From the NCBI GenBank assembly GCA_964402695.1, contig CAYODK010000003.1:22697-86696 (forward strand): a stretch of 64,000 nt of DNA, given 5' to 3'. Below are positions 46,632 to 63,639 of the stretch, piece by piece. Position 1 is the stretch's first letter; every line of letters starts with the position of its first letter. The translations under genes and the position numbers were made by a program. The DNA comes from an uncultured Verrucomicrobiota bacterium (GTDB lineage: Bacteria; Verrucomicrobiota; Kiritimatiellia; PWTM01). The notes beneath the pieces were generated by a model, which worked only from the letters and a program-made list of their open reading frames with translations, was not told the DNA's origin and searched no databases.

Positions 46632-48058
46632 AGCCCGCGCCCACCGCGCCGCGCCTCGTCTGCCTGGGGCTGCTGCTTGCCGTTTCGCCCGCATCCAGTC
46701 AGGAAGGCCGGCCGGCGGCGGGCGGCAGGCCCAATGTCCTCTTCATCATCGCCGACGACCTCAACCGCAGCCTGCCGTGCTACGGCCATTCCATCGTCAA
46801 GACGCCGAACGTGGACCGGCTGGCGGCGCGGGCGGTCCGCTTCGACCGCGCCTACTGCCAGTATCCGGTGTGCAGCCCGTCGCGCGTTTCGTTCCTGAGC
46901 GGGCGGCGGCCGGAACAGACGCGGATGTTCGGCAACGAGGACGCCTCGCGCACGCCGTCGCTGAAGGACGCCGTGTTCCTGCCGGAGTTCTTCCGGCAGC
47001 AGGGCTACTTCACCGCGCGCGTCGGCAAGGTCTTTCACATCGGCCGCGACGTGCCGGAGTGCTGGGACGTGACCGAGGAAGGCACGCCGGACGGCAAGGT
47101 CATCTACCAGCCCCAGGAGCCGGACAAGCTCGGCCTGCGGGAGAGCATCGCGCAGGAGGGCGAACTCGACGGCGACACGGGCGAAGGCGGGCACTGGTAC
47201 CGGCTCGCGCCCGTCGAGGAGAAGCTGATCGACCCGAGCACCGCGCGTCGCGTTTCGGCACTGATCGAACAGGGCGCGACGGGCGGCCGGCCGTTCTTCG
47301 TCGCGTGCGGTTTCCGCCGTCCGCATCTCCCGTGGATGGCGCCGGAGGAGTTCTTCGCGCCCTACCCGCCGGAGACCCTGCCGCTGCCGGCCCGGGGCGA
47401 GGTGCCGCGCCCCGTCGGCCCGGTGCAAGGCAAGGCGCCCGCCGCGTCGGACGACTCGCGGCGCGCCGCCCTGCGCGCCTACTTTGCCTGCATCAGCTTC
47501 ATGGACCGGCAGCTCGGCCGCGTGCTCGACACGATGGACCGGCTCAAGCTCTGGGACAACACGGTCGTGCTGCTGCTCGGCGACAACGGCTACCACCTCG
47601 GCACGCGCGGCGGCTACTGGGGCAAGGGCACGCCCTACGAGGAAAGCTGCGGCGTGCCGCTGCTGATCGCCGCTCCCGGCAGGGCCAAGGCGGTCGGTTG
47701 CCCGCGCGTGGTGGAATACGTGGACTTCTACCCGACGCTCGTCGACCTCTGCGGCCTGCCCGCGCAGCGCGACCTGGCCGGCCGCAGCCTGCGCCCGCTG
47801 CTCGACGATCCCGCCGCGCCGTGGGGCCACGCCGCATTCAGCATCAACGCCCGGAACAACCAGCCGTGGAATCTCGCCGTCAGCACCGAGCGGTTCCGGT
47901 ACATCGAATACGCGGATGAGAAGAAGCCGTGCGAACTCTACGACATCCAAACCGACCCGCGCGAGTGGACGAATCTCGCCGCCGCACCGGAGCACGCCGC
48001 GACGCTGGATGCTCTGCGGAAGCTGGCGGCGGAGCACCGACAGAGATTCTGGAGGTAG
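46628..48058 (+). CDS. sulfatase
   Basis: GTG start overlapping the previous stop. PNVLFIIADDLN. CQYPVCSPSRVSFLSGRRP. Confidence 0.9.
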   Translation: MKPAPTAPRLVCLGLLLAVSPASSQEGRPAAGGRPNVLFIIADDLNRSLPCYGHSIVKTPNVDRLAARAVRFDRAYCQYPVCSPSRVSFLSGRRPEQTRMFGNEDASRTPSLKDAVFLPEFFRQQGYFTARVGKVFHIGRDVPECWDVTEEGTPDGKVIYQPQEPDKLGLRESIAQEGELDGDTGEGGHWYRLAPVEEKLIDPSTARRVSALIEQGATGGRPFFVACGFRRPHLPWMAPEEFFAPYPPETLPLPARGEVPRPVGPVQGKAPAASDDSRRAALRAYFACISFMDRQLGRVLDTMDRLKLWDNTVVLLLGDNGYHLGTRGGYWGKGTPYEESCGVPLLIAAPGRAKAVGCPRVVEYVDFYPTLVDLCGLPAQRDLAGRSLRPLLDDPAAPWGHAAFSINARNNQPWNLAVSTERFRYIEYADEKKPCELYDIQTDPREWTNLAAAPEHAATLDALRKLAAEHRQRFWR

Positions 48059-48061
48059 GTC

Positions 48062-49339
48062 ATGAAGCGCACGCTTGAAGTGCTGGCCGTCGTCCTCGCC
48101 CTGGCGGCCCCGGCGGTGGAGGGCGCGCCGCGCTGGGAGATCCGGGCGGCGGGAGGCGGCTGGCAATTGCTCCGCGACGGCCGGCCGTTCCACATCGAGG
48201 GCGCCGTCGCGCCGAACCGGTTCGACGTGCTGGCCGCGTGCGGCGGCAACGCGGTGCGCGTCAATGCCAGCCGCAAGGCGCTCGACGCGGCGCAGGGAGC
48301 CGGTCTCGCCGTCATGGCCAACCTTCCCGTCCGCGGCGAGCGCAACCAGCTCGACTGGGACAACGCCGGGCAGGTCGCCGAACAGAAGGAGAAGGTCCTC
48401 GCGGTGGTGCGCGAGTTGAAGGACCACCCGGCGCTGATGTTCTGGTCGATCGGGAACGAGCTCGACCACATCCCCGGCAACCGGCGCTACAACCCCGCCA
48501 TCTGGGCGCGCCTGAACGACCTCGCCGTCGCCATCAAGCAACTCGACCCGCATCATCCGGTGATGACCGTCGTCGGCACCGGTCACTTTGAGACGAAGGT
48601 TCAGGAGATCGCCGCCGGCTGCAAGGACATGGACCTTCTCGGCATCAACGCCTACGGCGACATCGCGCGGGCGTGCGAGCTGGCCCGCGCGCATTGGCCG
48701 AAGGCGTACGCCGTCACGGAATGGGGGCCGACCGGTCACTGGGAGGTTCCGAAGACGGCCTGGCGCGCGCCGATCGAGCAGACCAGCAGCGAGAAGGCGA
48801 AGGTCATCGAGGAGCGGTATCGCAACGTCATCCTCGCCGACCGGACGCGCTGCCTTGGCTCGTTCGTCTTCTACTGGAGCGAGAAGCAGGAGACGACGCA
48901 CACGTGGTACGGCCTCTTCTGCGACGGCCTGCGCACCGAGTCGATCGATGTGATGCAGCATCTCTGGACCGGGGCGTGGCCGTCCAATCGCGCGCCGGCG
49001 ATCGCAGGGCCGGCCATCGAGGGCGTTGCCGACCCACGGGCCGTCGTGCTGAAGGCCGGAGCGGCGCACCGCGCCTCGGTCCGGGTGACGGATCCGGACG
49101 GCGATCCGCTTGCGTACACCTGGGACATCCGTCCGGAGGTCGTGATCCCGCCCGGCTCCTACGCGGGGGGACTTGAGAAGCGCGCCGAGCCGGTCCCCGG
49201 CCTCGTCCGCGAGCCCGCCGCGGCGGCGACCGGATTCTCCGCGCCGCTCGCGCCCGGGGCCTACCGCCTCTTCGTCGCGGTCGCCGACGGCCGCGGCCAC
49301 ATCGCATACGGCAACGTGCCGTTCCGGGTGGAGGAGTAG
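48062..49339 (+). CDS. clan GH-A glycoside hydrolase
   Basis: Signal MKRTLEVLAVVLALAAPAVEGA. WSIGNEL and AVTEWG motifs. Confidence 0.65.
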   Translation: MKRTLEVLAVVLALAAPAVEGAPRWEIRAAGGGWQLLRDGRPFHIEGAVAPNRFDVLAACGGNAVRVNASRKALDAAQGAGLAVMANLPVRGERNQLDWDNAGQVAEQKEKVLAVVRELKDHPALMFWSIGNELDHIPGNRRYNPAIWARLNDLAVAIKQLDPHHPVMTVVGTGHFETKVQEIAAGCKDMDLLGINAYGDIARACELARAHWPKAYAVTEWGPTGHWEVPKTAWRAPIEQTSSEKAKVIEERYRNVILADRTRCLGSFVFYWSEKQETTHTWYGLFCDGLRTESIDVMQHLWTGAWPSNRAPAIAGPAIEGVADPRAVVLKAGAAHRASVRVTDPDGDPLAYTWDIRPEVVIPPGSYAGGLEKRAEPVPGLVREPAAAATGFSAPLAPGAYRLFVAVADGRGHIAYGNVPFRVEE

Positions 49340-49650: not shown

Positions 49651-50922
49651 TCACCCTCCTCTCGCGGGGGCGGCGTCCCAGGGGATCACGATGTCGGTTT
49701 CCGAGAGGCGCCACGCCTTCTCCACGGGTGCGACCACCAGCCCGGGAGCGATCGAAAGGCCCGGGTAGGTGGCGCGAAAGGCGCCGATCCCGCGGGCGTC
49801 GTTGCGCGACAGTCGCGTGGAGGCCTTGATCTCGACGGGGTGATATCGCCCGTCCCGTTCCAGGATCAGATCGACTTCCGCGCCGCCATGCGACCGCCAG
49901 TGATACAAGGCGGGCGGCGCGGACATGCGGCTGCACAGGCGTCGAACCTCGCCCGCAGCCGCGGTTTCGACCAGCGCGCCCAGCGCCGGGTGGGACGCGA
50001 TCGCCGATGGGCTGGAGATCGCCAGCGCCATGCAGGCGATGCCGGTATCGGCGATGTACCCCTTGGCCTTGCCCGACACGCGCTTGACGGTGTTGCCCGA
50101 GAAGGCCGGCGTCTCGAACCACTGAAACGAGGACTTCAGAATCGCCAGCCAGTGGGCGGCCGTCTTCGGATTGATCCCGATGTCACGCCCCAGATGGGCG
50201 AAGTTGATCTCCTGCGCGGTCAGCGCAGCGGCGAGCCTCAGGAACCGGCCGAACAGCTGGCCGTCGGACACATCCGCCATCAGACGAACATCCCGCTCGA
50301 TGTAGGTCCGCTGGTAGCCCTCGTGGAACGAGCGCACCCCGTCCAGGGGCAGCCGCCGCGCCTCCGGCAACGCGCCCCGGTACAGGTACTCGTAGGGACC
50401 GACGGGAAGCCCGCGCGATATCCACGCCAGGGCCGTTTCGGGCTCCGGTGCCCGGAGCCAGTCCTCGATCCAGGACATCGACGGAGAGGCCGCGCCGCAC
50501 CACTCCGCCATTTCGAACCCATGCAGATCGAGGAACACCGCGCGGCCGGCCAGGCTTTCCGACAGGCTGCGCATTACGGCCCATTGCTGGCTTCCAGTCA
50601 GAAGAAACCGGCCCGGACGACGGTCGCGATCCACCGCGCGCTTGACCGCAGCCGCGAGTTCCGGGGCGTACTGGATTTCGTCGAGCACCAACGGCTCGCG
50701 GTGGTTCTTCAGGAAGAGATCCGGATCCCGGCGGGCACCCTCCACATCGTACGAAGGATCGAACGTCACGTAGTCCGCATCCGGAAGGATGTGACGAAGC
50801 AGTGTCGACTTTCCCACCTGCCTTGCGCCCGTCACCACCACCACCGGAAAGAGACTGAATAGCCTCGTCAGCCGTTCCGTGACCTGACGATACGTATAGT
50901 TATCTTGATTTGCGGTATCCAT
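49651..50922 (-). CDS. AAA-family ATPase with DUF4143-like domain (paralog of 32362..33591)
   Basis: Start at Met20 of track ORF 49651..50979: MDTANQDNYTYRQVTERL...VVVVTGARQVGKSTLL Walker A. Somewhat lower GC than its neighbours. Its C-terminal codons overlap repeat segment 2. Confidence 0.75.
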   Translation of the reverse strand: MDTANQDNYTYRQVTERLTRLFSLFPVVVVTGARQVGKSTLLRHILPDADYVTFDPSYDVEGARRDPDLFLKNHREPLVLDEIQYAPELAAAVKRAVDRDRRPGRFLLTGSQQWAVMRSLSESLAGRAVFLDLHGFEMAEWCGAASPSMSWIEDWLRAPEPETALAWISRGLPVGPYEYLYRGALPEARRLPLDGVRSFHEGYQRTYIERDVRLMADVSDGQLFGRFLRLAAALTAQEINFAHLGRDIGINPKTAAHWLAILKSSFQWFETPAFSGNTVKRVSGKAKGYIADTGIACMALAISSPSAIASHPALGALVETAAAGEVRRLCSRMSAPPALYHWRSHGGAEVDLILERDGRYHPVEIKASTRLSRNDARGIGAFRATYPGLSIAPGLVVAPVEKAWRLSETDIVIPWDAAPARGG

Positions 50923-50982
50923 AGGACTGATATTCAAGAAAAGTATGCCTACATCTGAACAAGAGCAAGCCTGATCCACGGT

Positions 50983-52773: not shown

Positions 52774-53007
52774 ATGAAGACGATGAGCGCGTCGCAGTTC
52801 AAGGCGGAGTGTCTCCACATTCTGGATGTGGTTAGCCAGACGGGGGATCCGATCACAATTCTGAAGCGTGGAAAGCCGGTGGCTCAGGTGGTTCGGGCTC
52901 CGCAGGGCACGCAGAAGCCGTGGCTTGCCCTGGCCGGGAGCGGTCGCTTCGAGGGCGATCCCCTTGCGCCGGCGATCGGCGAGGACGAGATCGAGGCGCT
53001 CCGGTGA
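52774..53007 (+). CDS. Phd/YefM family antitoxin
   Basis: 77 aa. MKTMSASQFKAECLHILDVVSQTGDPITILKRGKPVAQVV. Confidence 0.8.
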   Translation: MKTMSASQFKAECLHILDVVSQTGDPITILKRGKPVAQVVRAPQGTQKPWLALAGSGRFEGDPLAPAIGEDEIEALR

Positions 53008-53408
53008 AGCGACCTCTGCTGGATACGCACATCTGGATCTGGTGGATGATCCGGTCCGAAGAGCTTCCAACGGAGAGCGCGAGTCGTCTCGACGCGATGC
53101 CGACCGACCGACGCCCCCTCGTGTCCGCGATCAGCCTCTGGGAAGTCGCGACACTGGTGGAACGGGGACGCCTCAAACTGGATCGGGACCTCCGCGCCTG
53201 GCTTCGGATCGCCGCGGCGGCGGAATGTGTCGAGCTTGTGCCGATCACACCGGACATCGCCGCAGAAACCGCCGCCCTGCCTCCGGACCTTCATCGTGAC
53301 CCGGCAGACCGGATCCTCATCGCCACGTCCCGCATCCTCGGTTGCCCGGTCTTCACCCGCGACGACCGGATCCGCCAGTCGGGGCTCGTCGACCTTTGGT
53401 CGGACTGA
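53004..53408 (+). CDS. vapC: PIN-domain toxin VapC
   Basis: GTG start overlapping the antitoxin stop. VKRPLLDTHIWIWWM...HRDPADRILIATS. Confidence 0.8.
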   Translation: MKRPLLDTHIWIWWMIRSEELPTESASRLDAMPTDRRPLVSAISLWEVATLVERGRLKLDRDLRAWLRIAAAAECVELVPITPDIAAETAALPPDLHRDPADRILIATSRILGCPVFTRDDRIRQSGLVDLWSD

Positions 53409-53497: not shown

Positions 53498-56014
53498 ATG
53501 CTCGTGAAGCCGAACACCGACCCGTCCGTCACCGACGCGAACGACCGGCCCCGACGGGGTCTGGGCGCGGGGATCCTCCTGGCCTTCCTCCTGCTCGCCT
53601 CGCTGGGCATGGCGAAGGTGCTGCTGCGCCCGGACCACGTACTCGACTTCAACGACGGCAACATCGAGTCGGTCCTCTCGCCGACCTTCGCGCTGCCCGA
53701 CGCGATCCTGCGAGTCTGGGACAACCAGTTCTTCTTCGGCCAGGGCGGCAAGCTGTTCTCCCTCTCCTCGGCCAGCATCGGCGAATCGCTGATGGGGCCG
53801 CACGAGTACCGGCGCATCTTCGTGGCGCTCCTGGTCGCGCTCGCCGGGGCGGGCGTCTACTGGATGCTTCGCCAGTTCCGCATCGCCCGCGCGGCCGCCG
53901 CGCTCGCGGCCGGGGCCGTGATGCTCGGCGGCACATGCTACACGTTCTCCGTGCTGGGGCTGATGGTCCGCGCCGGGGCGCTCGGCTTTGCGGCGCTCGC
54001 GACGGGCTTCCTCGAGCGGGGCCGGCGCGACGGCGCCTGGATCCCCTATGCCCTCGGCGGCGGGTGCCTGGGCCTCGCCCTCTCCGAGGTGCCGGACATC
54101 GGTGTGTTCCTGGCGGTCGCGACGGCGGGCATCTGGCTCTGGACGCACTGGCCGGAGGCGCCGGCGAAGGCCCCGTGGGCGAAGCTGGCCGGCCGGTTCG
54201 CGCTGTACGTCGTCTGCAGCGGCCTGCTGGCGTGGCAGACGATCGGCGTGATGTTCGCGACGCAGGTGGAGGGCGTGCAACAGGGCGCCGCCGAGGATCC
54301 CGCCGAACGATACGCCTGGGCGACGCAGTGGAGCCTGCCGCCGGAAGAGACGTGGAACCTGGTCTCGGGAACCTACTTCGGCACGACGTCGCGCTCGGCG
54401 GACGCGCCGTACCGCGGCCGGATGGGCCGCAGCCCCGGCTGGGAGACGACGAAGCAGGGGTTCCGCAACTTCTCGCTGACCGGGCACCACCTCGGTGTCG
54501 TCCCGTCGATCCTGCTGCTGACCGCAATCGCCGTCGCCCTGGCGGGGCCGCGCGACCGCCGCCGGCTGGCATGGCTGGCCGTCGCCGGGGGCGGCGTCTC
54601 CCTCCTGCTCGCGATGGGCAAGTTCACACCGCTGTACCGGCTCGTCTTCTCGCTCCCCTACTTCAGCACCATCCGCAATCCCGAGAAGTGGATGGTCCCG
54701 TTCGTCCTGTTCGCCGCGCTCGGCATCGCGCTGGCGGTCGAGGCGCTTCGCAATCCGTCCGGCGAGGAGTCCCGGCGCGTGCGCCGCTGGACGCTCTGGA
54801 CCTGCGCCGGGATCGGCGGGCTCTCGCTGCTGCTGCTCGTTGCGACCTTCGCCGGGAAGTCCGGGTTCCTCGCGCAGATGCAGGCCGAAGGCTATGGCGA
54901 GCAATCCGCCGCCGCCTGGTCGGCCGCCGTCCTGGCGTGCCTGAAGACCGCCGCGATCGCAGGGGTCTTCGCGCTGGCCGTGGGTGCGATGTCCCGGCCC
55001 GTCTCCCTCTCGTTCTCCCGCCGGGCGGCCCTGCTGACGGCGGCCGCAGGGGTCCTGACCGGGCTCGATCTCCTGGCGGTCAACGGCCACTACGTCGCCG
55101 GCCGCACCTACGGCGCGGTGCTGACCCCGAACCCGCTGCGGCAGTTCATCGACGCCCATCGCGGCGACGGCCGGTTCAAGATGCTCCCGCCCACGCACCC
55201 GGCGCTGAACAACATCCGCATGAGCCACATGCAGGTGTCGGGATGCGACCTCTTCGACCCGGTCAGCGTCTCGCGCATGCCGACGGACTACGCCGCGCTG
55301 TTCGAGGCGCTGCAGCCCCTCCCGATGCGGATCTGGGAACTGGGCGGCGTGCGCTACTTCGTCACCCTGCCCGGCGGCGCGCAGCAGCTCGAGCAGGCCG
55401 ACGGCGGGCGGGGCCGCGTGAAGGAGGTCTTCGCGGCCGGCATCGCGCAGATGGACAACGCCCTCGTCCCGGTCGACGGCGCCCCGGCGGACCAGCAGGT
55501 CCTTCGAATCGCCGAGTTCTCCGGCGCCCGGCCGAAGATCGCCTTCTCCACCCGCGTGACCGCCGTTCCCGTCACGGCCGACGGCGAGAAGGCCGCGCTG
55601 GCCCGGCTCGCGGCGCCGGACTTCGACGCCGCCTGCGAGGCGGTCGCCCACGGGGAGCCCGCCCCGCCCGCCGCGCCGGCGGAGGCGAAGGTGCTGCGCA
55701 CCGCGCGTGACGAACCCGCCGACGCCGCGGTCGAGGTGGAAACCCCCGCCCCCGCCCGTCTGACCCGCACGACCAAGTTCGATCCCGACTGGAAGGTGCG
55801 GATCGACGGCGCCCCGGCCGCCCTGCTGCGCGTGAACTCCACGTTCCAGGGCGTCGTCATCCCCGCCGGCCGCCACACCGTCGACTTCGAGTACCGCCCC
55901 GACCGCAGCTCGCTTGCCGTCGCCGCCGCCGGCCGCCTCGGCTGGCTCGGCCTCTGGCTCGTCTGGCTCGTCTGGCTCGTCCGCCGTCGAGCCGAACTCA
56001 CACAGAGGCGCTGA
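53498..56014 (+). CDS. large polytopic membrane protein, YfhO/GT39(ArnT-PMT)-like putative glycosyltransferase
   Basis: ~839 aa. More than 10 predicted TM helices at the N-terminus and middle, periplasmic C-terminal region, final TM (LGWLGLWLVWLVWLV). Start at Met14 of track ORF 53459. Confidence 0.55.
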   Translation: MLVKPNTDPSVTDANDRPRRGLGAGILLAFLLLASLGMAKVLLRPDHVLDFNDGNIESVLSPTFALPDAILRVWDNQFFFGQGGKLFSLSSASIGESLMGPHEYRRIFVALLVALAGAGVYWMLRQFRIARAAAALAAGAVMLGGTCYTFSVLGLMVRAGALGFAALATGFLERGRRDGAWIPYALGGGCLGLALSEVPDIGVFLAVATAGIWLWTHWPEAPAKAPWAKLAGRFALYVVCSGLLAWQTIGVMFATQVEGVQQGAAEDPAERYAWATQWSLPPEETWNLVSGTYFGTTSRSADAPYRGRMGRSPGWETTKQGFRNFSLTGHHLGVVPSILLLTAIAVALAGPRDRRRLAWLAVAGGGVSLLLAMGKFTPLYRLVFSLPYFSTIRNPEKWMVPFVLFAALGIALAVEALRNPSGEESRRVRRWTLWTCAGIGGLSLLLLVATFAGKSGFLAQMQAEGYGEQSAAAWSAAVLACLKTAAIAGVFALAVGAMSRPVSLSFSRRAALLTAAAGVLTGLDLLAVNGHYVAGRTYGAVLTPNPLRQFIDAHRGDGRFKMLPPTHPALNNIRMSHMQVSGCDLFDPVSVSRMPTDYAALFEALQPLPMRIWELGGVRYFVTLPGGAQQLEQADGGRGRVKEVFAAGIAQMDNALVPVDGAPADQQVLRIAEFSGARPKIAFSTRVTAVPVTADGEKAALARLAAPDFDAACEAVAHGEPAPPAAPAEAKVLRTARDEPADAAVEVETPAPARLTRTTKFDPDWKVRIDGAPAALLRVNSTFQGVVIPAGRHTVDFEYRPDRSSLAVAAAGRLGWLGLWLVWLVWLVRRRAELTQRR

Positions 56015-56095
56015 GGACGCAGGGAAGCACGATCAAAGTGGTCCGGGAGGGCCGCCGGGTTGATTCCGCGCTGTGCCGCGGCTACTCTGCGCATC

Positions 56096-57043
56096 ATGAG
56101 CAATCCTCCGCAACGCGTGCTCGTCACGGGCGGCGCCGGCTACATCGGGTCGATCCTCGTCCCGATGCTGCTGGCCGAGGGCCACCCGGTGACGGTGCTG
56201 GACAACTTCCTCTACGGCCAGTCCTCGCTGCTGGACTGCTGCCACGATCCGAAGCTCCGGATCGTCCGCGGCGACGCCCGCGACGAGGGCCTCCTGAAAC
56301 GCCTCGTTCCCGAGGCGGACGTGCTGATCCCGCTCGCGTGCCTCGTCGGCGCGCCGCTCTGCGAGAAGCGGCCCGTGGAGGCGAAGACCCTGAACCTCGA
56401 CGCCGTGGAACGGATCGTCGCGCTCAGCCGCCCCGGCCAGAAGATCGTCTACCCGAACACCAACAGCGGCTACGGCATCGGCGAGGAGAACCTCGAGTGC
56501 ACCGAGGAGTCGCCGCTTCGGCCGATCTCGCTCTACGGGCGGCTCAAGGTCGACGCCGAGACGGCGGTGCTCGGCTCCGGCCGCGGCGTGGCGCTGCGCC
56601 TGGCGACGGTCTTCGGCATCAGCCCGCGCATGCGGCTGGACCTCCTCGTCAACGACTTCACCTACCGCGCCGTCACCGACCGCTTCGTGGTCCTGTTCGA
56701 GGCCCATTTCAAGCGGAACTACATCCACGTTCGCGACGTCTCGCAGGCCTTCATCCACGCGATGACGAACTTCGAGGCGATGAAGGGGCAGGCCTACAAC
56801 GTCGGCCTCAGCGAGGCGAACCTTTCCAAGATGGAGCTGTGCCTCGCGATCAAGGAACAGGTGCCGGATTTCACGATCATGGAGGCGCCGATCGGCAAGG
56901 ATCCCGACCAGCGCAACTACATCGTGAGCAACGCGAAGATCGAGGCGACCGGCTACCGCCCGCGCGTCGGGCTGCGGGCCGGCATCGCCGAGCTGATCAA
57001 GGGCTACCAGGTCGTGCGGCGGAACCAGTTCTCCAATGTCTGA
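56096..57043 (+). CDS. NAD-dependent epimerase/dehydratase family protein
   Basis: VLVTGGAGYIGS Rossmann motif. Extended-SDR fold. Confidence 0.85.
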   Translation: MSNPPQRVLVTGGAGYIGSILVPMLLAEGHPVTVLDNFLYGQSSLLDCCHDPKLRIVRGDARDEGLLKRLVPEADVLIPLACLVGAPLCEKRPVEAKTLNLDAVERIVALSRPGQKIVYPNTNSGYGIGEENLECTEESPLRPISLYGRLKVDAETAVLGSGRGVALRLATVFGISPRMRLDLLVNDFTYRAVTDRFVVLFEAHFKRNYIHVRDVSQAFIHAMTNFEAMKGQAYNVGLSEANLSKMELCLAIKEQVPDFTIMEAPIGKDPDQRNYIVSNAKIEATGYRPRVGLRAGIAELIKGYQVVRRNQFSNV

Positions 57044-57088
57044 AACGGACCGACAACACGGAGACGCGGAGATCGCAGAGAGGACGAT

Positions 57089-57679
57089 GTGAAGGAAGAG
57101 CCCGCCAGACCGATCATGTCGCACGCGTGCGATCCGTCGCAGCCGCTGGCGCGCCGCCTGGGGGTCGCGGTGCATGTGTCGCCGCTGCGGATGCGATTGC
57201 GCCGGCTGATGGCGGAGCATCCGTCCGCCGGCGCGGTCTGCGTTGAAGACTGGCTTCTCGATGTCGCGCAGACCCGCGGTGTCCGATCCGTCACGCGGGA
57301 CATCCATCCCCCCGCCGGTTTTCAACCTCCGTCGCTATCGGAGCTTTCGACCGAGGAGCTTGTCGCGGCCATCACGCAGCCGCAGAACCTGGACCGCCCC
57401 CAAATCCTGCGCGCCGCTGCGGAACTCGTTTCGCGCGGAGCCGTGGACCCCTCCGTGCTGGCGGCGACCGCCCGCAGGGAGCGCGCGGATCGTGTGCTGG
57501 CCGAGCTGGCGCGGCAGGCGCTTCATGTCGAGCCCGCCCATTTCGTATGGCGCGCTCTGGCCGGCGCCCTCGGCGATGTCCGGCCGCTGCGTTCGCCGCT
57601 TCTGCATTGGACGCGAATCGCCTTCCCTGTTCCCGACGAGCGGGGCGTTTGCCGGGGCACATGGAGGCTGGTCGCGTGA
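57089..57679 (+). CDS. hypothetical protein
   Basis: 196-aa ORF. Start ambiguous (57089, 57116, or later). No family recognised. Confidence 0.4.
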   Translation: MKEEPARPIMSHACDPSQPLARRLGVAVHVSPLRMRLRRLMAEHPSAGAVCVEDWLLDVAQTRGVRSVTRDIHPPAGFQPPSLSELSTEELVAAITQPQNLDRPQILRAAAELVSRGAVDPSVLAATARRERADRVLAELARQALHVEPAHFVWRALAGALGDVRPLRSPLLHWTRIAFPVPDERGVCRGTWRLVA

Positions 57680-58212
57680 ATCGCGCGGAGATCATCCTGG
57701 CGACGCTGGACCGGCACCTGCAGTCCCGGGTCGAACTCACGCTGTTCGGCCGGGCCGCGCTGGCCCTCGGCTTCTCCGATCCCCCGCCCGAGTTCGGACT
57801 GAGCCTCGATGTGGATGGCGTCCTCTGGAACGGTCAGGCCGAGGAACTGCTGGAACGGACGGATTTCTGGAGCGCGGTCGAGCGGGCCAATGCCGAGCTG
57901 GCCGGCGCGAAGCTCTACATCAGCCATTTCTTTCAGGAAGACCAGATCGTGCTCTCTCCCGACTGGCGCACCCGGCGGGTGCCCGTGCCCGGCGCATGGA
58001 GTCATCTGACCCTCTTCCGGCTTGGCGATGAGGATCTCTTTCTTTCCAAACTGATGCGTCTGGATCCGCAGGATCTCGCCGATGCGCGGTTTGTTGCAAA
58101 CCGCGCCGGCTGGACTCCGGCGCAGATTCGGACGATCCTGCACGACGCGCGGGTTCCGGGCATTCCCGAGATTCGCGAGCAATTCGAGCTATGTTCCAGA
58201 GAATTCTTGTAA
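57676..58212 (+). CDS. hypothetical protein with nucleotidyltransferase-fold-like signature
   Basis: GTG start overlapping the upstream stop (alternative ATG 57661). ELTLFGRAALALGF...SLDVDGVL resembles the hG[GS]-x9-17-DxD minimal NTase motif. Tentative. Confidence 0.4.
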   Translation: MNRAEIILATLDRHLQSRVELTLFGRAALALGFSDPPPEFGLSLDVDGVLWNGQAEELLERTDFWSAVERANAELAGAKLYISHFFQEDQIVLSPDWRTRRVPVPGAWSHLTLFRLGDEDLFLSKLMRLDPQDLADARFVANRAGWTPAQIRTILHDARVPGIPEIREQFELCSREFL

Positions 58213-59135
58213 CCGGCGCCACCGGCTTCCTCGGGCACCACATCGTGCCGGCGCTCCGAACGGCCCTCCCCGGCGCCGAGCTGGTGCCGGTCGGCCGGCG
58301 CGACGCCGACCTCCTGCAGCCCGCCGCGCCGGCGCGGCTGCTGGCGGACGTGAAGCCGGACGCCGTCGTCCACCTCGCCGCGAAGTCGGGCGGCATCCAG
58401 GACAACCGGAAGCGCCCGGCGGACTACTTCTACGAGAACCTCGCGATGAACACCGCGGTGTTCGAGGCCGCGTTCCGCGCGGGCGTGACGAAGTTCCTCA
58501 CGCTGATGGGCGGCTGCTCCTACCCGTCGAAGGCCGTCTCGCCGATCGGCGAGGACCAGATGTGGAACGGCTTCCCGCAGATCGAGAGCGCCGGCTACTC
58601 GGTCGCGAAGAAGATGATGCTCGTCCAGTCGTGGGCCTACCGCGTCCAGCACGGCTTCAACTCCGTCGTGCTGATCCCGGGCAACGTCTACGGCGAATGG
58701 GACAACTTCAACCTCGAGCAGTCGCACGTGATCCCGGCGCTTGTCCGCAAGTACATCGAGGCGCGCGACCGCGGCGACGCCGAGATCGTCGCGTGGGGCA
58801 CCGGCCGGCCGACGCGGGACTTTGTCTACGCCGGCGACGTTGCCGCGACGATCCCCTGGTTCCTCTCGAACTACGACTCGAGCGATCCGGTCAACATCTC
58901 CACCGGCACGCGGATCTCGATCCGCGAGCTCGCCGAGACCGTCGCGCGGACCACCGGCTTCGCCGGACGCATCGCGTGGGACACCACCAAGCCGGACGGC
59001 CAGGTCGACAAGATCTTCGACGTGTCGCGCCTTGCCTCCCTCGGGCTCTCGTGCCGGACGACGCTCGAGGAGGGCCTCCGGCGCACCGCGCAGTGGTTCG
59101 ACCAGGCCCGCCGCGAGGGGACGGTGCGCCTGTGA
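58191..59135 (+). CDS. fcl: GDP-L-fucose synthase-like 3,5-epimerase/4-reductase (GMER family)
   Basis: ILVTGATGFLG...RPADYFYENLAMNTAVFEAA...FLTLMGGCSYPSKAVSPIGEDQMWNGFPQIESAGYSVAKKMM closely follows the GMER/Fcl pattern. Confidence 0.85.
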   Translation: MFQRILVTGATGFLGHHIVPALRTALPGAELVPVGRRDADLLQPAAPARLLADVKPDAVVHLAAKSGGIQDNRKRPADYFYENLAMNTAVFEAAFRAGVTKFLTLMGGCSYPSKAVSPIGEDQMWNGFPQIESAGYSVAKKMMLVQSWAYRVQHGFNSVVLIPGNVYGEWDNFNLEQSHVIPALVRKYIEARDRGDAEIVAWGTGRPTRDFVYAGDVAATIPWFLSNYDSSDPVNISTGTRISIRELAETVARTTGFAGRIAWDTTKPDGQVDKIFDVSRLASLGLSCRTTLEEGLRRTAQWFDQARREGTVRL

Positions 59136-59944
59136 GCGACGCCCGCCAGCGCACGTGTCTCGTGCTCGGCGCGAAGGGCTTCGTCGGCTCCGCGATCGCC
59201 GCCGAGGCCGCGCGGCGCGGCTGGACCGTGCTTGCGGTGGACAAGGACGAGTACGACGCGGCCGTCGGATCGGCCTGCGACCTCCTGGTCAACGCGAACG
59301 GCAACTCGCGCAAGTATCTCGCGGCGCAGGATCCGAAGCAGGAGTTCGACCTGTCCGTGCGGTCCGTCGAGCGCTCGCTGCACGACTTCCGCGCGGACCT
59401 CTACGTGCATCTCTCGACCATCGACGTCTACGCCGACGCCTCGTCGCCCGCGACGACCGGCGAGGACGCGCCGATCGACCCGGCCCGCCTCTCGCCCTAC
59501 GGCTTCCACAAGTGGCTCGCCGAGCGGCTGGTCGAACACGACGCGCGGCGACGGCTGATCCTGCGCATGGGCGGCTTCGTCGGCCCGCGCCTCTGGAAGA
59601 ACTCGATCCACGACCTTCTCGCCGGCGTCCCGCTGCGCGTGCACCCGGATTCGGAGTACCAGTACCTCGACACGCGGGAGCTCGCGCGGATCGTGTTCGA
59701 CCTTGTCGCGGCGGGCGTCGAGGGGACACGCCTCAACGCCTGCGGCGCCGGCACCGTCGCGTTGCGCGAGGTCGCGTCGTGGATCCCGGGCTGCGACCTG
59801 TCCGCGCTGCCCGCCGGATTGCCGCGCGAGCGCTACGAGGCGTCGACCGGCCGCCTCGCGGCCCTGCGCCCCGTTCCGCCGACCCGCGACATGGTCCGCG
59901 CCTTCCTCGCCGAGTGCCGGACCGCCGGAGGGATCCCCCGATGA
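59132..59944 (+). CDS. NAD-dependent epimerase/dehydratase family protein
   Basis: GTG start overlapping the fcl stop. LVLGAKGFVGSAIA Rossmann motif. Confidence 0.7.
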   Translation: MSDARQRTCLVLGAKGFVGSAIAAEAARRGWTVLAVDKDEYDAAVGSACDLLVNANGNSRKYLAAQDPKQEFDLSVRSVERSLHDFRADLYVHLSTIDVYADASSPATTGEDAPIDPARLSPYGFHKWLAERLVEHDARRRLILRMGGFVGPRLWKNSIHDLLAGVPLRVHPDSEYQYLDTRELARIVFDLVAAGVEGTRLNACGAGTVALREVASWIPGCDLSALPAGLPRERYEASTGRLAALRPVPPTRDMVRAFLAECRTAGGIPR

Positions 59945-60927
59945 TCATCGCGCGCGCCCCGTTCCGCATCAGCTTCTTCGGCGGCGGCACCGACTTCCCC
60001 GGCCACTACCGGCGGCACGGCGGCGCCGTGCTCGCGACGACGATCGACAAGCACACCTACCTGAGCCTCCACGCGCTGAGCCCCTTCTTCAAGTACCGCT
60101 TCCGCGCCAGCTACGCGCGGACCGAGCTCGTGCAGCACCCGCGCGAGTTCGAGCATCCGCTGATCCGCGAGAGCCTGCTGATGCTCCGCGTCCGCGAGGG
60201 GCTGGAGCTCACGCACGTCTCGGATCTGCCCGGCCGCACGGGGCTGGGCACCTCGTCGGCCTTCACCGTCGCGCTGCTGCACGCGCTGCACGAGCGGCGC
60301 GGCGACCGGGTCGGTCCTGAGGATCTCGCCCGCGAGGCGATCGAGGTCGAACGCGAGCGCGTCGGCGATTCCGGCGGCCACCAGGACCAGTACGCCGCGG
60401 CCTACGGCGGCATGATGCGCATCGACTTCGGCCCCGGCGACGCGGTGCGCGTCCGTCCCCTCGCCCTCCGCGCCGCGCGCCTCGCACAGCTCGAGGGCCG
60501 CCTGCTGCTCTTCTACCTCGGCCGCGAGGAGTCCGCCGAATCGATCCTCGCCGAGCAGACACGGCGCTCGCGCCGCAACGCGGACGCCCTGAAGCGCATG
60601 CACCGCATGGTTGATCAGGCGGAGCGGATCCTCACCGCCGGCGAGCTCGATGACTTCGGCCGGCTGCTGCACGAGGGCTGGACGCTGAAAAAGACGCTCT
60701 CGAGCGGCATCTCGAACGCGCCGATCGACGACGCGTACGCGGCCGCGCTCAAGGCCGGCGCGCTGGGCGGCAAGCTGCTCGGCGCGGGCGGACGCGGATT
60801 CCTTCTGGTCTTCGCCGACCCGGCGCGCCACGCGACCGTGCGCCGCCGCCTCTCGGCGCTGCGCGAGGTGCGGTTCCGCTTCAGCCGCGAGGGGAGCCGG
60901 ATCGTGTTCCGGTCCGGCGGGTCATGA
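59941..60927 (+). CDS. GHMP-family sugar kinase (HddA-like heptose/fucose kinase)
   Basis: MIIARAPFRISFFGGGTDFP is the N-terminal motif of HddA-type GHMP kinases. GHMP motif LPGRTGLGTSSAF. Confidence 0.8.
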   Translation: MIIARAPFRISFFGGGTDFPGHYRRHGGAVLATTIDKHTYLSLHALSPFFKYRFRASYARTELVQHPREFEHPLIRESLLMLRVREGLELTHVSDLPGRTGLGTSSAFTVALLHALHERRGDRVGPEDLAREAIEVERERVGDSGGHQDQYAAAYGGMMRIDFGPGDAVRVRPLALRAARLAQLEGRLLLFYLGREESAESILAEQTRRSRRNADALKRMHRMVDQAERILTAGELDDFGRLLHEGWTLKKTLSSGISNAPIDDAYAAALKAGALGGKLLGAGGRGFLLVFADPARHATVRRRLSALREVRFRFSREGSRIVFRSGGS

Positions 60928-61937
60928 CGGAACCCGCCGCGCCGCCGCGCGTGTCGGTCATCGTCCCCTTCAAGAACGAGGAGGCGACGATCCCGCTCGT
61001 GCTCGACAGCCTCGCGCGGCAGGTCGTCGACTTCCCCTACGAGGTCATTTTCGCCGATGGCTGCTCGACCGACCGGTCCGTCGAGGTCATCCGCGCCCAT
61101 CCGCTGAACGCGAAGGCCGACGTCCGCGTGCTGCCGCTGCCGCCGGAGAACCACGGGATGAACGTCGGCCGGAACCTGGGCGCCGCCGCCGCCCGCGCCC
61201 CGTTGCTGGTGTTCATGCAGGCGGATGTCCGCATCCGCGACCCCGACGCACTGGCGAAAACGGCCCGTCGGCTCGACGAGCCCGGCGTCGTCGGCACGAC
61301 CTTCGTCGGTCTCGGCGCCGGGGAGGATTTCCGGGCGTACGACTTCTGGGGCCAGGTCTTCCTCGCCCGATACCAGGGCCTCCGGTGCGAGAACGACTTC
61401 GACACCAAGTTCAACGGCGTGCGGCGCGAAGTGTTCGAGAAGATCGGCGGCTTCGACGACCGCCGGTTCCCCTACGGCGGCGAGGATTTCGATTTCCGCG
61501 TCCGCCTCGCCCGCGAGGGGCGCATCGTCGGGACGGGGGTCGATGTGGAGCACCTGCACGGCTTCGGCAAGCGGCACACGTGGCAGGGTCTCCTGCGCAA
61601 GTATGCGCGCAACGCGGAGTGCATGGGCGCGACGACGCCAGTCTACCTTGCGCACCTCGACCAGGAGCCCGGCTACCTCCGGACCCTGACCGCGCGCCTT
61701 GCGCTCTGCATCTGCTGCCTCGCGGCGCCGCTGCCATGGGCGTGGCCGTGGGCCGCGCTGGGCGTTCTGGCGTTCAGCCTCGCCTGGAGCGCCCCGGCCT
61801 ACCGGCACGTCCGGAGCCCGCGCCTCGCCGTCGTCCCCTTCTTCGGCATCGCTGCGATGTACGTGTTCACGGTGTATTATCTTCGCGGCCTGGTCGGGGG
61901 CCGGGTGCGGGTGAAGATCGAGAATCCCATGCAATGA
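60924..61937 (+). CDS. glycosyltransferase family 2
   Basis: VSVIVPFKNEE...ADGCSTD. C-terminal TM helices. Confidence 0.85.
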   Translation: MTEPAAPPRVSVIVPFKNEEATIPLVLDSLARQVVDFPYEVIFADGCSTDRSVEVIRAHPLNAKADVRVLPLPPENHGMNVGRNLGAAAARAPLLVFMQADVRIRDPDALAKTARRLDEPGVVGTTFVGLGAGEDFRAYDFWGQVFLARYQGLRCENDFDTKFNGVRREVFEKIGGFDDRRFPYGGEDFDFRVRLAREGRIVGTGVDVEHLHGFGKRHTWQGLLRKYARNAECMGATTPVYLAHLDQEPGYLRTLTARLALCICCLAAPLPWAWPWAALGVLAFSLAWSAPAYRHVRSPRLAVVPFFGIAAMYVFTVYYLRGLVGGRVRVKIENPMQ

Positions 61938-62791
61938 GCGACGCGGAACCCAGAACGAACGCGGGGGCGCTGCCGGACCGGCACACGCTGCGCGCGGCCA
62001 TCGAGCGGATCCACGGGGAGTGCATGCGGGCCGACCCGGCCCTGCGCGACGCCCTGCACGCCGAGTACGGCCGCGCCGGGATGGTCACGCGGTTCGCCTC
62101 GATCGTCCGGGCGTTCCGCCGGCTCCTGCCCGCCGGCCGCCCGCTCGACGGGCTCGAGGTCGGCGTCGGCGAGGGCGCGCTCGTCCTCGCGCTGCACGAG
62201 TTCGTCCCGGCCGTCCGCTGGCAGGGCGTCGACATCCCGCTGCGCCATTCCACCTACCAGCGCGAGTTCGACGCGATCATGGCGCGGCACTCGATCCGGA
62301 TCGTCGAGGCCGACCTGACGAGGAACACGATCCCCTTCCCCGACGCGTCGTTCGACGCGGTATCGTTCTCCGAGGTGCTCGAGCACCTGCCCGCCAACGG
62401 CGTGATGCCGACCCTGCGCGAAATCGCGCGCATCCTGCGCCCGGGCGGGGTCGTCGTGGCCACCTCGCCGAACCTCCTCTCGCTGATGAATCGTCTGCTG
62501 CTCCTGGCGGGACGGAGCCCGTTTCACCTGCCGGTCTCCGAGAATTACAACGGCAGCGATGTGTATCCCCACATCCACCTCTACGCCGCGTTCGAGTTCG
62601 AGGCCCTGTGCCGCAAGGCGGGGCTCGAGCCCGCGGGCCGGGAGCACCTGACCTACCTGACCCACGCGTTCTTCGGCGGGAACGCGGCCCGCAACGCGGC
62701 GCTGCGCGCCTACCTCGCCGCCGAAGCCGTGCTGGGCGCGGTCGCCCCGGCCCTGAAGGACGGCTGGCTCGTCGCGGCGCGCAAGCCATGA
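61934..62791 (+). CDS. class I SAM-dependent methyltransferase
   Basis: LEVGVGEGALVL (motif I) and FDAVSFSEVLEHL. Confidence 0.8.
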   Translation: MSDAEPRTNAGALPDRHTLRAAIERIHGECMRADPALRDALHAEYGRAGMVTRFASIVRAFRRLLPAGRPLDGLEVGVGEGALVLALHEFVPAVRWQGVDIPLRHSTYQREFDAIMARHSIRIVEADLTRNTIPFPDASFDAVSFSEVLEHLPANGVMPTLREIARILRPGGVVVATSPNLLSLMNRLLLLAGRSPFHLPVSENYNGSDVYPHIHLYAAFEFEALCRKAGLEPAGREHLTYLTHAFFGGNAARNAALRAYLAAEAVLGAVAPALKDGWLVAARKP

Positions 62792-63639
62792 TGCCGCCGG
62801 CGATCATCCTGTGCGGCGGCCGCGCCACGAGGCTGGCCGCTCTCCACGGCGACCGCCCGAAGGCGCTCGTGCCGGTCGCGGGCCGCCCCTTCCTCGAGTG
62901 GCAGATCGCGTGGCTCGCGCGCGGCGGCGTGCGACGTGTCCATCTCGCCGCCGGCCACCTGGCGGACCAGCTCGCGGCGTGGGCGGAGGAGGTGTCAGGT
63001 GTCGGGTGTCCGGTGTCAGGAGGACGGGCCGGATGGCTGCCACCGATGATTCGATATCTGTCCTCCGGCGTCCTCGAGGGCGGGGGGTTGACATCCGGTG
63101 CCCGGTGTTCGGCCTCCGCCCCTGACACCCGACACCTGACACCTGAAACCTCCGTGTCTCTTTCCGTCGAGCCCCGGCCGCTGGGCACGGGCGGCGGATT
63201 GCGGTACGCGGCGGACTTTGTCGACGGCGACGCGATGCTCGTGGTGAACGGCGACACGCTGCTGCCCGGCCTGGATTTCCAAGGGTTGGAAGCCGCGGCC
63301 GAGCGGACTTCCAAGGGTTGGACGTCGATCGCGGTGACGCGGGTCGACGACGCGGCCCGGTTCGGAACCGTGACGGTCGAGGACGGCCGCGTGGTCGATT
63401 TCCTCGAAAAGGGGCGCTCCGCGTCGGGCTGGATCAACGGCGGCGTCTACCGGATGAGCCGCGCGGCCGTCGACTCGATCCCGCGCGAAACGGCCGTTTC
63501 CATCGAGACCGACCTCTTCCCGGACTGGGCGCGCGACGGCCGCATCGCCGCCGTCCCCGCCGATCCGCCCCTGCTCGACATGGGCACGCCCGACGGTCTC
63601 GCGGAGATGGTCCGCTGGCTGGACGCGCACCGCCCGTGA
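62788..63639 (+). CDS. sugar-1-phosphate nucleotidyltransferase (HddC/ManC-like) carrying an in-frame ~160-bp palindromic insertion
   Basis: AIILCGGRATRL (G-G-x-x-T-R), PLGTGGGL, VVNGDTL, GVY motifs in HddC order. Insertion lies between AAWAEE and VSLSVEPRPLGTGGG. Confidence 0.8.
   Translation: MMPPAIILCGGRATRLAALHGDRPKALVPVAGRPFLEWQIAWLARGGVRRVHLAAGHLADQLAAWAEEVSGVGCPVSGGRAGWLPPMIRYLSSGVLEGGGLTSGARCSASAPDTRHLTPETSVSLSVEPRPLGTGGGLRYAADFVDGDAMLVVNGDTLLPGLDFQGLEAAAERTSKGWTSIAVTRVDDAARFGTVTVEDGRVVDFLEKGRSASGWINGGVYRMSRAAVDSIPRETAVSIETDLFPDWARDGRIAAVPADPPLLDMGTPDGLAEMVRWLDAHRP
62989..63148. mobile_element. MITE-like element with terminal inverted repeats built from NGGTGTC heptamers (ggtgtcaggtgtcgggtgtccggtgtcagg ... 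cctgacacccgacacctgacacctg)
   Basis: Read directly inside the nucleotidyltransferase ORF. No stop codon introduced. Confidence 0.55.

Follow-up and report, generated by a model that had tools for sequence, protein, structure and literature searches.

A conserved Kiritimatiellia-type operon that may build a modified GDP-heptose for the cell envelope

What does a compact run of sugar-enzyme genes in an uncultured Kiritimatiellia bacterium make, and where is the product delivered? The window analysed here is a 64 kb stretch of genomic DNA. Ten co-directional genes occupy the full span of positions 53498–63639 on its + strand, to which all gene coordinates below refer. Six of the ten overlap start to stop, with a 4-nt overlap (GTGA or ATGA) at each junction from G4 to G9. 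The GC content of third codon positions (GC3, 0.85–0.98) picks out one + strand coding frame per gene. Pfam, NCBIfam and PDB searches match the genes to a GHMP kinase, an NTP-transferase, an Fcl-like SDR, two more extended SDRs, a class-I methyltransferase, a GT2 and a large polytopic membrane protein. Reading frames and domain searches agree with a sequence-only reading of the locus, which had named all of these enzyme types in co-directional, start-stop-overlapping genes.

The closest relatives of the cassette are found in Verrucomicrobiota, Kiritimatiellia and Lentisphaerae MAGs. The gene order is kept in relatives whose kinases are 63–95% identical to that of the window (G6), so the cassette is not a chance arrangement of open reading frames. 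It is a genuine, widely conserved operon of a Verrucomicrobia/Kiritimatiellia-type host. In the relatives, the cassette stops at the nucleotidyltransferase (NTase) gene, beyond which lie unrelated genes in the opposite orientation. What could be observed directly is the identity of the genes, the folds of their products, and the conservation of residues and gene order. On balance, and with moderate confidence, we conclude that the operon serves to synthesise a modified, GDP-activated D-glycero-heptose and to deliver this sugar to the envelope.

G6 (59941–60927) encodes a 328-residue GHMP sugar kinase containing PFRISFFGGGTD. Its top NCBIfam family is HddA (NF049969) with 149 bits, below the cutoff of 600; fucokinase scores 102. 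The PDB matches score 163 bits for 3K85, 139 for WcbL, 114 for C. jejuni HddA, 70–73 for Fkp and 39 for GalK. In a neighbor-joining tree of 58 sequences, the cassette kinases form a clade with a bootstrap of 91 that includes the kinase of L026, a GmhA/GmhB-linked locus. The sister clade holds five GmhA-linked kinases (joint bootstrap 98). Both adjoin the clade of WcbL, C. jejuni HddA and 3K85, and Fkp is a distant outgroup. By sequence, G6 groups with HddA-type heptose kinases and not with fuco-, galacto- or mevalonate kinases. Because it clusters with neither fucokinases nor galactokinases, the earlier description of the kinase as HddA-like holds. The motifs GGGTD and GGHQDQY are also as in HddA, whereas Fkp has GGWTD and GGGWQDQY. 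Residues R13, D22, Q162, D163 and S118–120 are essential in WcbL (PMC4691232). G6 keeps R13, D22, Q162, D163 and S119/120, and S118 is replaced by Thr. The Q, D and S residues of this set also occur in Fkp, so their conservation in G6 cannot discriminate between substrates. G6 is predicted to be a heptose-7-phosphate 1-kinase of the HddA radiation.

The last gene of the cassette, G9 (62788–63639), encodes a 283-residue sugar-1-phosphate nucleotidyltransferase. It scores higher with the NCBIfam model man1P_GTase (122 bits) than with HddC (NF049965, 90 bits, cutoff 300), both below cutoff, and its top PDB match is Yersinia HddC (6JQ8, 94 bits). In L026, the sole GDP-type NTase beside GmhA, GmhB and the kinase is of the G9 type. 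G9 is probably an HddC/ManC-like, GDP-forming enzyme, consistent with its earlier designation as HddC-like. The gene carries an in-frame, imperfectly palindromic insertion of about 166 nt (62988–63153, no strand assigned), composed of GGTGTCN heptad repeats, which lengthens by about 45–50 residues a loop that relatives have in a short form. The inverted repeat has 58-nt arms of 76% complementarity, with inner 24-nt arms of 96%. GC3 falls to 0.63–0.73 within the insertion from at least 0.9 on both flanks. The segment is missing from orthologs of 237–257 residues, and its motif is found nowhere else in the 64 kb window, with zero chance matches expected.

G2 (56096–57043) encodes an extended SDR of the Cj1427-like, C4-dehydrogenase type. 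It aligns end to end with PDB entries 6VO6 and 6VO8 (402 bits, E 1e-119, 58% identity; G2 residues 6–314 on 6VO6 residues 3–311), which, judging by the entry name, represent C. jejuni Cj1427, a GDP-heptose C4-dehydrogenase. Cj1427 oxidises C4 to give a 4-keto sugar and keeps the 6-hydroxyl (PMC10680097). Members of the G2 family share 63–75% identity over at least 575 genome loci. Of 80 family loci, 51 also contain an HddA-like kinase, 38 an NTase, 8 GmhA and 3 GmhB. Eight G2-family loci have a true Gmd together with a G9-like NTase but lack the kinase, so the family may not be strictly heptose-specific. From its similarity and its kinase/NTase context, G2 is predicted to be a Cj1427-type GDP-heptose C4-dehydrogenase. 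The 58% identity and the PVC relatives support the proposal of a Campylobacter GDP-heptose-type nucleotide-sugar modification cluster in a PVC-type organism.

G4 (58191–59135) encodes a 314-residue GDP-L-fucose synthase (GFS)-like SDR. It scores 274 bits with NCBIfam NF047922 (cutoff 500), 214 with human GFS, 184 with the E. coli enzyme and 130–148 with the C. jejuni heptose reductases. It aligns over its full length with E. coli Fcl at 35% identity and, like Fcl/GMER/GFS enzymes, conserves Cys109, His179, Tyr136 and Lys140. Unlike them, it scores below the family cutoff, has Gly in place of Ser107 (in all six cassette orthologs), lacks a Gmd partner and lies in a heptose-type context. Judged by these residues and scores, G4 works like GFS, yet is not an Fcl ortholog. 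It is predicted to be a C3/C5 epimerase acting on GDP-4-keto-heptose, and is possibly also a C4 reductase. The C. jejuni reductases MlghC and DdahC lack the GFS Cys/His dyad and depend on cupin epimerases (PMC7949155); G4 differs from them in retaining the dyad and lacking the triad Ser, and no cupin epimerase is encoded in the cassette.

G5 (59132–59944) encodes a 270-residue orphan extended SDR. The gene is confined to cassette-type loci and invariably lies directly upstream of the kinase gene, which it overlaps. GxxGxxG, S95 and Y123-x3-K127 are invariant across 18 orthologs. The top PDB match of the G5 profile is an unnamed SDR (53 bits), followed by generic epimerases and RmlD; the best solved 4,6-dehydratase scores about 30 bits. 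The sequence STIDVY, compared with the Gmd motif STSELY with its catalytic Glu, places an acidic residue at the Glu position in 16 of the 18 orthologs, in an alignment judged by eye. G5 is tentatively predicted to be a C4 keto-reductase.

G8 (61934–62791) encodes a 285-residue class-I SAM-dependent methyltransferase that matches Pfam Methyltransf_11/23/25 with 51–56 bits. Orthologs are present in L001 (84%) and L002 (64%), and methyltransferases also occur with the kinase or GT2 gene in L093, L095, L096 and L026. G8 is predicted to O-methylate the sugar. G3a and G3b form a two-gene module between G2 and G4. The sequence-only reading had overlooked both of these small genes, as well as the palindromic insertion in G9. 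G3a (57116–57679) is a 187-residue open reading frame that has no match in Pfam, NCBIfam or PADLOC. Its GC3 is lower, at about 0.78. L001 and L009 have it at the equivalent place (97% and 55%), whereas L002–L004 and L007 lack it; it probably stands outside the sugar pathway. G3b (57661–58212) encodes a 183-residue nucleotidyltransferase-like protein of the DUF6036 family (27.9 bits, above the cutoff of 23.6), and L009 has a homolog of 57% identity at the corresponding place. If translation begins instead at the GTG codon at 57676, the start overlaps the stop codon of G3a. G3b is predicted to partner G3a in a toxin-antitoxin-like manner.

G1 (53498–56014) encodes an 838-residue polytopic membrane protein composed of about 13 transmembrane helices, a periplasmic β-rich C-terminal domain and a last transmembrane helix. 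Its Pfam YfhO (PF09586) score of 22.3 bits is under the cutoff of 28.5 and covers only the C-terminal 44 residues. YfhO is matched by 48 of 51 members of the G1 family at E ≤1e-3 (best 1.6e-11), and several homologs carry the NCBI name 'YfhO family protein'. The AF2 model has a pLDDT of 94.6. All 18 PDB matches found by Foldseek at E ≤1e-3 are GT-C enzymes, including AftD (2.8e-9), ArnT (2.8e-7; TM-score on target 0.52), STT3, PglB, EmbA/B and AftA. N52 and D53 are at least 90% conserved and lie in the first extracytoplasmic loop, right after TM1; D53 may have a catalytic role. As modelled, G1 has an AftD/ArnT-like GT-C fold and is probably a divergent YfhO-family glycosyltransferase, which fits its earlier description as a YfhO/ArnT-like membrane protein.

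The other membrane enzyme, G7 (60924–61937), is a 337-residue membrane-embedded GT2 that consists of a GT-A domain, an interface helix and three C-terminal helices. Its structure is nearer to PcManGT, the best full-length match, and to synthase-type GT2s than to GtrB, ArnC or DPMS. The predicted role of G7 is to move the sugar from its GDP carrier onto a lipid-linked acceptor. In P0253, a G7-type GT2 is fused to an NTase. G7-type GT2s directly adjoin G1 homologs in the window, L001–L004, L094 (Acidobacteriota) and L096, representing at least three independent lineages. The recurrence of this pair in other phyla suggests a lipid-linked, extracytoplasmic route of heptosylation. GT-C enzymes require donors that are lipid-linked, and within the operon only G7 is a candidate for making one. 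Lipid-linked heptose donors are not known to have been reported.

Part of this arrangement could be read otherwise: with the sugar pathway as proposed, G7 may add heptose in the cytoplasm to an Und-PP-linked repeat unit or another lipid-linked glycan, and G1 may use a different donor or be a mere neighbour. The match of G7 to PcManGT rather than to polyprenyl-phosphate sugar synthases fits this view. No flippase is encoded in the cluster, and a tblastn search of the 64 kb window with the Wzx/MatE-like neighbours from L009 and L094 gave no match; a small open reading frame with three transmembrane helices (1196–1579) has no Pfam match. The GT2 beside the YfhO-like gene of L009 is not orthologous to G7, and L026 has a separate ArnC/PgfS-like GT2. 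In most cassette relatives a cytoplasmic GT4 replaces G7 and G8, so GT-C delivery is not universal. Given the repeated G1–G7 pairing and the donor requirement of GT-C enzymes, purely cytoplasmic delivery is unlikely in the window's operon.

The identity of the sugar is open to two further readings. The sequence-only reading had proposed a GDP-6-deoxy-heptose, with GmhA and GmhB possibly beyond the window edge, and had noted that Gmd is missing. Such pathways (C. jejuni DdahA/B/C, B. pseudomallei WcbK/L/M/N, Y. pseudotuberculosis DmhA/B) share the HddA/WcbL-type kinase and HddC/WcbM-type NTase front end with the cassette, and begin with a Gmd-type GDP-heptose 4,6-dehydratase (PMC4691232, PMC7949155). 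A tblastn search of the whole 64 kb window with E. coli Gmd (E <0.01) finds no Gmd/DdahA-type 4,6-dehydratase. A further SDR would have to perform the dehydration. The acidic residue in STIDVY makes G5 a candidate, but G5 has just 270 residues and a best dehydratase score of about 30 bits, and its Asp is not invariant. G2, moreover, is of the non-dehydrating type (PMC10680097) and would be redundant beside a dehydratase. Because a Gmd-type enzyme is missing and the C4-dehydrogenase keeps the 6-hydroxyl, a 6-deoxy product is not supported, and we regard it as very unlikely. Neither GmhA nor GmhB is encoded in the window or in L001–L010, and among the other cassette-type loci with usable flanks L026 alone has them adjacent. 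The end of the relatives' cassette at the NTase gives no support to a position of GmhA and GmhB just past the window edge. What stands of that proposal is the heptose-type cluster with its HddA-type kinase, HddC/ManC-like NTase and YfhO/GT-C protein.

A product without any heptose would arise if G6 and G9 were a split Fkp-like salvage or activation pair for a hexose or 6-deoxyhexose (fucose, mannose or L-galactose) and G2, G4 and G5 interconverted GDP-hexoses, for example GDP-mannose to a GDP-L-galactose or L-gulose type. The rarity of GmhA and GmhB fits such a scheme, as do the top score of G9 with a mannose-1-phosphate guanylyltransferase model, the closeness of G4 to true GDP-fucose synthases rather than heptose reductases, the WcbL residues shared by G6 and Fkp, and the eight kinase-less loci with Gmd. 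The low fractions of the NCBIfam equivalog cutoffs (149/600 for the kinase, 90/300 for the NTase and 274/500 for the Fcl-like SDR) also count against heptose. However, the kinase branches within the GmhA-linked kinases of the HddA type, remote from Fkp, and has HddA-like motifs. The single locus L026 combines GmhA, GmhB (193.5 bits, above cutoff), homologs of G2 and G4, the kinase and an NTase of the G9 type, and in L094 an NTase fused to a GmhB-like HAD domain has homologs of G1 and G7 and an HddA-like kinase as neighbours. G2 is also 58% identical to an enzyme characterised on GDP-heptose, if 6VO6 is Cj1427. A hexose product is thus quite unlikely.

The most likely product is a modified GDP-heptose with its 6-hydroxyl, which would be passed to the two membrane glycosyltransferases. 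GmhA, supplying the kinase substrate, and GmhB, removing the 7-phosphate, would be encoded elsewhere in the genome. After activation by G6 and G9, G2 would oxidise C4 to give GDP-4-keto-heptose; since the 6-hydroxyl would be retained, the product would not be 6-deoxy. G4, with its Cys/His dyad, would epimerise C3/C5 without a cupin epimerase. C4 would be reduced by G4, which has lost the triad Ser, and/or by G5, and G8 would O-methylate the sugar. At the cytoplasmic face, G7 would transfer the sugar to a polyprenyl-phosphate-linked carrier, and after flipping, G1 would pass it to an acceptor outside the cytoplasm (LPS, a different glycan or a protein). We infer all substrates, the product stereochemistry, the stage at which methylation takes place, the acceptor and the lipid-linked intermediate.

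In delivery, the cassette resembles the CsbB/GtcA/YfhO, GtrA/B/C and ArnC/ArnT systems, for which a three-component model of GT-A enzyme, flippase and GT-C enzyme has been reviewed (PMC8035078). Both pair a membrane-anchored GT-A-fold GT2 with a YfhO-family GT-C-fold enzyme. The cassette differs in that no GtrA/GtcA-type flippase was found, its GT2 seems to fall outside the GtrB/CsbB/ArnC subtype, and its presumed donor is GDP-heptose instead of UDP-Glc, UDP-GlcNAc or UDP-Ara4FN.

In sugar synthesis, it resembles the Campylobacter GDP-heptose pathway that keeps the 6-hydroxyl. Both have an HddA-type kinase, an HddC-type NTase, a Cj1427-type enzyme (58%), an Fcl-like SDR and associated methyltransferases, and neither has a 4,6-dehydratase. 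Unlike the Campylobacter pathway, the cassette lacks gmhA and a cupin epimerase, has the additional SDR G5 before the kinase, resides in a PVC bacterium, and would deliver its sugar through a membrane GT2 and a YfhO-type GT-C enzyme rather than polymerising capsule (Kps) glycosyltransferases. The cassette most likely represents a variant, so far uncharacterised, of a pathway that is known from the capsules of Campylobacter.

The cassette is a real, conserved operon of ten genes, all on the + strand, that occupies 53498–63639, exactly the span assigned to it by the sequence-only reading. Spurious frames abound in raw ORF lists because the G+C content of the window is ~71%; coding frames were chosen by third-position GC, which is 0.85–0.98 in one frame per gene. 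In order, the operon encodes a membrane GT-C glycosyltransferase of the YfhO family (G1, 53498–56014, 838 aa), a Cj1427-like C4-dehydrogenase (G2, 56096–57043, 315 aa), two small ORFs (G3a, 57116–57679; G3b, 57661–58212), an SDR resembling GDP-L-fucose synthase, GFS (G4, 58191–59135), an orphan SDR (G5, 59132–59944), an HddA-like kinase (G6, 59941–60927, N-terminal start MIIARAPFRISFFGGGTD), a membrane GT2 (G7, 60924–61937), a methyltransferase (G8, 61934–62791), and a nucleotidyltransferase (NTase; G9, 62788–63639). Each junction from G4 through G9 is a 4-nt overlap. The gene order also occurs in relatives, with kinase identities of 95% in assembly GCA_964423465.1 and of 73% and 63–65% in others. 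Pfam and NCBIfam recover all the enzyme types named in the sequence-only reading in one co-directional cluster; that reading overlooked G3a and G3b. A scan for sigma-70 promoters returned none, and a terminator scan returned 3 terminator-like sites against 3.7 expected. A literature search for the cassette in Verrucomicrobia gave unrelated microbiome papers only.

G3a and G3b form an overlapping pair (57116–58212) between G2 and G4, with GC3 below that of their neighbours. G3a has no family match, and G3b is a DUF6036 nucleotidyltransferase-like protein. A pair 55–57% identical sits at the identical position in a Lentisphaerae MAG (loci L009/L010), and a recent local insertion was rejected for this reason. 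The pair is missing in other relatives and is placed elsewhere in locus L036; in L005 the same intergenic slots are filled by DUF2283 and PDDEXK_3 ORFs. The pair looks like a toxin–antitoxin-like module at a site of the cassette that is occupied repeatedly. A PIN-domain (VapC-like) ORF (52920–53408, +; Pfam 67.7 bits) immediately precedes G1, where the GC content is lower (~0.67). PADLOC gave no match for G3a, G3b, or the PIN ORF. The same lower-GC region (50–53 kb) holds an AAA_14/DUF4143 ATPase (49651–50979, −), located between a sulfatase/glycoside-hydrolase block (45036–49339) and the cassette.

G2 aligns end to end with PDB 6VO6/6VO8 (E = 1e-119, 58% identity). We take these entries to be structures of C. 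jejuni Cj1427, their PDB molecule name being the odd annotation string of the Cj1427 gene. A genome-wide scan finds the G2 family at 63–75% identity in at least 575 loci of species-level genomes, distributed over Verrucomicrobiota, Kiritimatiellia, Lentisphaerae, Planctomycetes, Omnitrophota, Chloroflexota, and others. Among the best 80 of these loci, which include none from Campylobacter, an HddA-like kinase is present in 51, an NTase in 38, GmhA in 8, and GmhB in 3. Eight loci (L023, L041, L044, L062, L065, L075, L079, and L085) combine a G2-family dehydrogenase and a G9-like NTase with a true Gmd, 48–52% identical to E. coli Gmd, and contain no HddA-like kinase within 10 kb. In some lineages, GDP-hexoses may also be substrates of the G2 family.

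The kinase G6 has HddA as its top NCBIfam family, with 149 bits versus 102 for fucokinase, a score far under the HddA equivalog cutoff of 600. It matches solved HddA-type structures over the full length with 114–163 bits (B. thetaiotaomicron 3K85, B. pseudomallei WcbL, and C. jejuni 4N3O); the matches to the fucokinase Fkp score 70–73 bits and are confined to the C-terminal two thirds. A phylogeny had been proposed to separate HddA from fucokinases and GalK. In a tree of 58 sequences (324 columns, 100 bootstraps), G6 falls within a cassette clade (bootstrap 91) that holds the kinase of L026, a Verrucomicrobia locus also encoding GmhA and GmhB. This clade joins a sister clade with five further GmhA-linked kinases (bootstrap 98). 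Next outward is a clade of the three HddA-type proteins from the PDB (bootstrap 100), with Fkp far outside as the outgroup. G6 groups with the GmhA-linked HddA-type kinases, in line with its description as HddA-like in the sequence-only reading. The residues demonstrated to be essential in WcbL (PMC4691232) are kept in G6. They were dropped as a substrate discriminator, since Fkp has them too.

G9 is an HddC/ManC-like NTase by sequence. Its top structure match is Yersinia HddC (94 bits), and in NCBIfam the mannose-1-phosphate guanylyltransferase model scores 122 versus 90 for HddC; from these matches, the nucleotide is probably GDP and the sugar manno-configured. G9 also contains an imperfect, in-frame palindrome of ~166 nt (62988–63153) built of GGTGTCN heptads. 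Its inner 24-nt arms are 96% complementary, and GC3 there falls to 0.63–0.73. The palindrome lengthens one NTase loop by ~45–50 residues; orthologs lack it, and the window has no second copy. It may be a small palindromic mobile or repeat element that the predicted NTase gene tolerates in frame.

In tblastn searches with E. coli queries, GmhA (isomerase), GmhB (phosphatase), and Gmd (4,6-dehydratase) are found neither in the 64-kb window nor in ten relatives' loci. GmhA and GmhB had been suggested to lie beyond the window. The downstream end of the cassette was judged from the relatives' loci, where the NTase is its last gene and unrelated opposite-strand genes (ppk and ppx) come next; GmhA and GmhB therefore do not lie just past the window end. 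L026 is a cassette-type locus (G4 homolog 75% and kinase 60% identical) that carries GmhB (193.5 bits, over cutoff) and GmhA, divergent and directly adjoining the G2 homolog. Only one of its NTases is GDP-type, and it resembles G9; a second NTase, considered as a true HddC, proved to be RfbF, a glucose-1-phosphate cytidylyltransferase (440 bits, over cutoff). In the Acidobacteriota locus L094, the NTase is fused to a GmhB-like HAD domain, and an HddA-like kinase and G1 and G7 homologs are neighbours. In C. jejuni, the GmhB used is encoded outside the capsule locus. On the simplest reading, the cassette relies on housekeeping GmhA and GmhB. The first step of 6-deoxy-heptose pathways is a Gmd-type 4,6-dehydratase. 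The absence of Gmd noted by the sequence-only reading holds across the window, but the 6-deoxy product it proposed is not supported: the presence of the C4-dehydrogenase G2 implies that the sugar is not 6-deoxy and retains its 6-OH.

Genuine GDP-fucose synthases match G4 better (214 bits for the human and 184 bits for the E. coli enzyme) than do the heptose reductases of C. jejuni (130–148 bits). GFS epimerises with the dyad Cys109/His179 and reduces with the triad Ser107/Tyr136/Lys140. The dyad is gone from both MlghC (Y/R) and DdahC (T/H), which lack epimerase activity and need cupin epimerases (PMC7949155). G4 and five cassette orthologs keep the Cys, His, Tyr, and Lys, and Ser107 is replaced by Gly. 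G4 would perform C3/C5 epimerisation, because the Cys/His dyad is kept and the cassette has no cupin gene. Where Campylobacter has a cupin-epimerase/reductase pair, the cassette appears to use a GFS-like enzyme whose epimerisation dyad is intact.

In the 270-aa orphan SDR G5, the Ser95/Tyr123/Lys127 triad is invariant, and the G5 gene always overlaps the kinase gene. The solved relatives of G5 include none that is informative (best, 53 bits). G5 may supply or complement C4 reduction. A dehydratase-like role is also possible from its sequence, because the motif STIDVY places an acid at what we take to be the position of the catalytic Glu of Gmd. In L026 (12937–16617), a DegT/PseC-like aminotransferase and a hexapeptide acetyltransferase occupy the G5 slot, together with an FkbM methyltransferase, which predicts a 4-acetamido-4-deoxy-heptose as the product. 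The swap fits a 4-keto branch point made by G2 and tailored differently in each lineage. G8 is a class-I methyltransferase, and methyltransferases recur alongside this gene set.

G1 scores under the Pfam YfhO cutoff, yet 48 of its 51 family members match YfhO. Its model from a deep alignment is very confident (pLDDT 94.6), and its significant PDB matches are all GT-C enzymes: AftD, ArnT, STT3/PglB, EmbA/B, AftA, and PMT. The YfhO matches of its relatives and the presence of ArnT on this list are consistent with the earlier assignment of G1 as a YfhO/ArnT-like membrane transferase. The membrane GT2 G7 (model pLDDT 95.4) belongs to a small, sharply bounded family that includes a natural NTase::GT2 fusion (P0253), at whose locus G2, kinase, methyltransferase, and G4 homologs are also present. 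Two natural fusions join pathway steps: P0253, which is NTase::GT2 of the G7 type (L093 620–2389), and the GmhB-like NTase::HAD phosphatase (L094 14598–15962). A G7-type GT2 directly adjoins a G1 homolog in the window, L001–L004, L094, and L096. This pairing fits the GT-A/flippase/GT-C model (PMC8035078), but no flippase was found within the window. In most cassette relatives, moreover, the place of G7 and G8 is taken by a cytoplasmic GT4. In several Kiritimatiellia/Verrucomicrobia relatives, GH172-family glycoside hydrolases of 760–780 aa directly adjoin the cassette (L005 12956–15286; L007 4922–7204 and 13819–16161; also L016, L020, L024, and L042), and might act on its glycan there. The window cluster has no GH172.

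The best reading of the cassette is a system for GDP-heptose modification, non-6-deoxy and coupled to a GT2/GT-C delivery pair, with predicted chemistry, stereochemistry, and acceptor. A fuller scheme is offered tentatively, as one we consider rather unlikely in its entirety. G7 would make a polyprenyl-phosphate-linked (methylated, epimerised) heptose, with which G1 would heptosylate an envelope acceptor on the periplasmic side of the inner membrane. The core (Cj1427-like dehydrogenase, GFS-like epimerase that keeps the Cys/His dyad, orphan SDR, HddA-like kinase, and NTase) would, across PVC bacteria, be a conserved pathway to a heptose stereoisomer unlike any from Campylobacter. If none of these readings is true, the cassette is an ordinary surface-glycan operon. 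To our knowledge, modified-heptose biochemistry comes almost only from Campylobacter, Burkholderia, and Yersinia capsules and O-antigens, and neither a lipid-linked heptose donor nor a periplasmic heptosylation system has been described. The C4-dehydrogenase is highly conserved across many phyla, and PVC bacteria carry it in a distinct cassette. The cassette offers testable enzymology, in the heptose epimer made and the role of the orphan SDR, and is a candidate first case of heptose delivery via a GT2/GT-C lipid-linked route.
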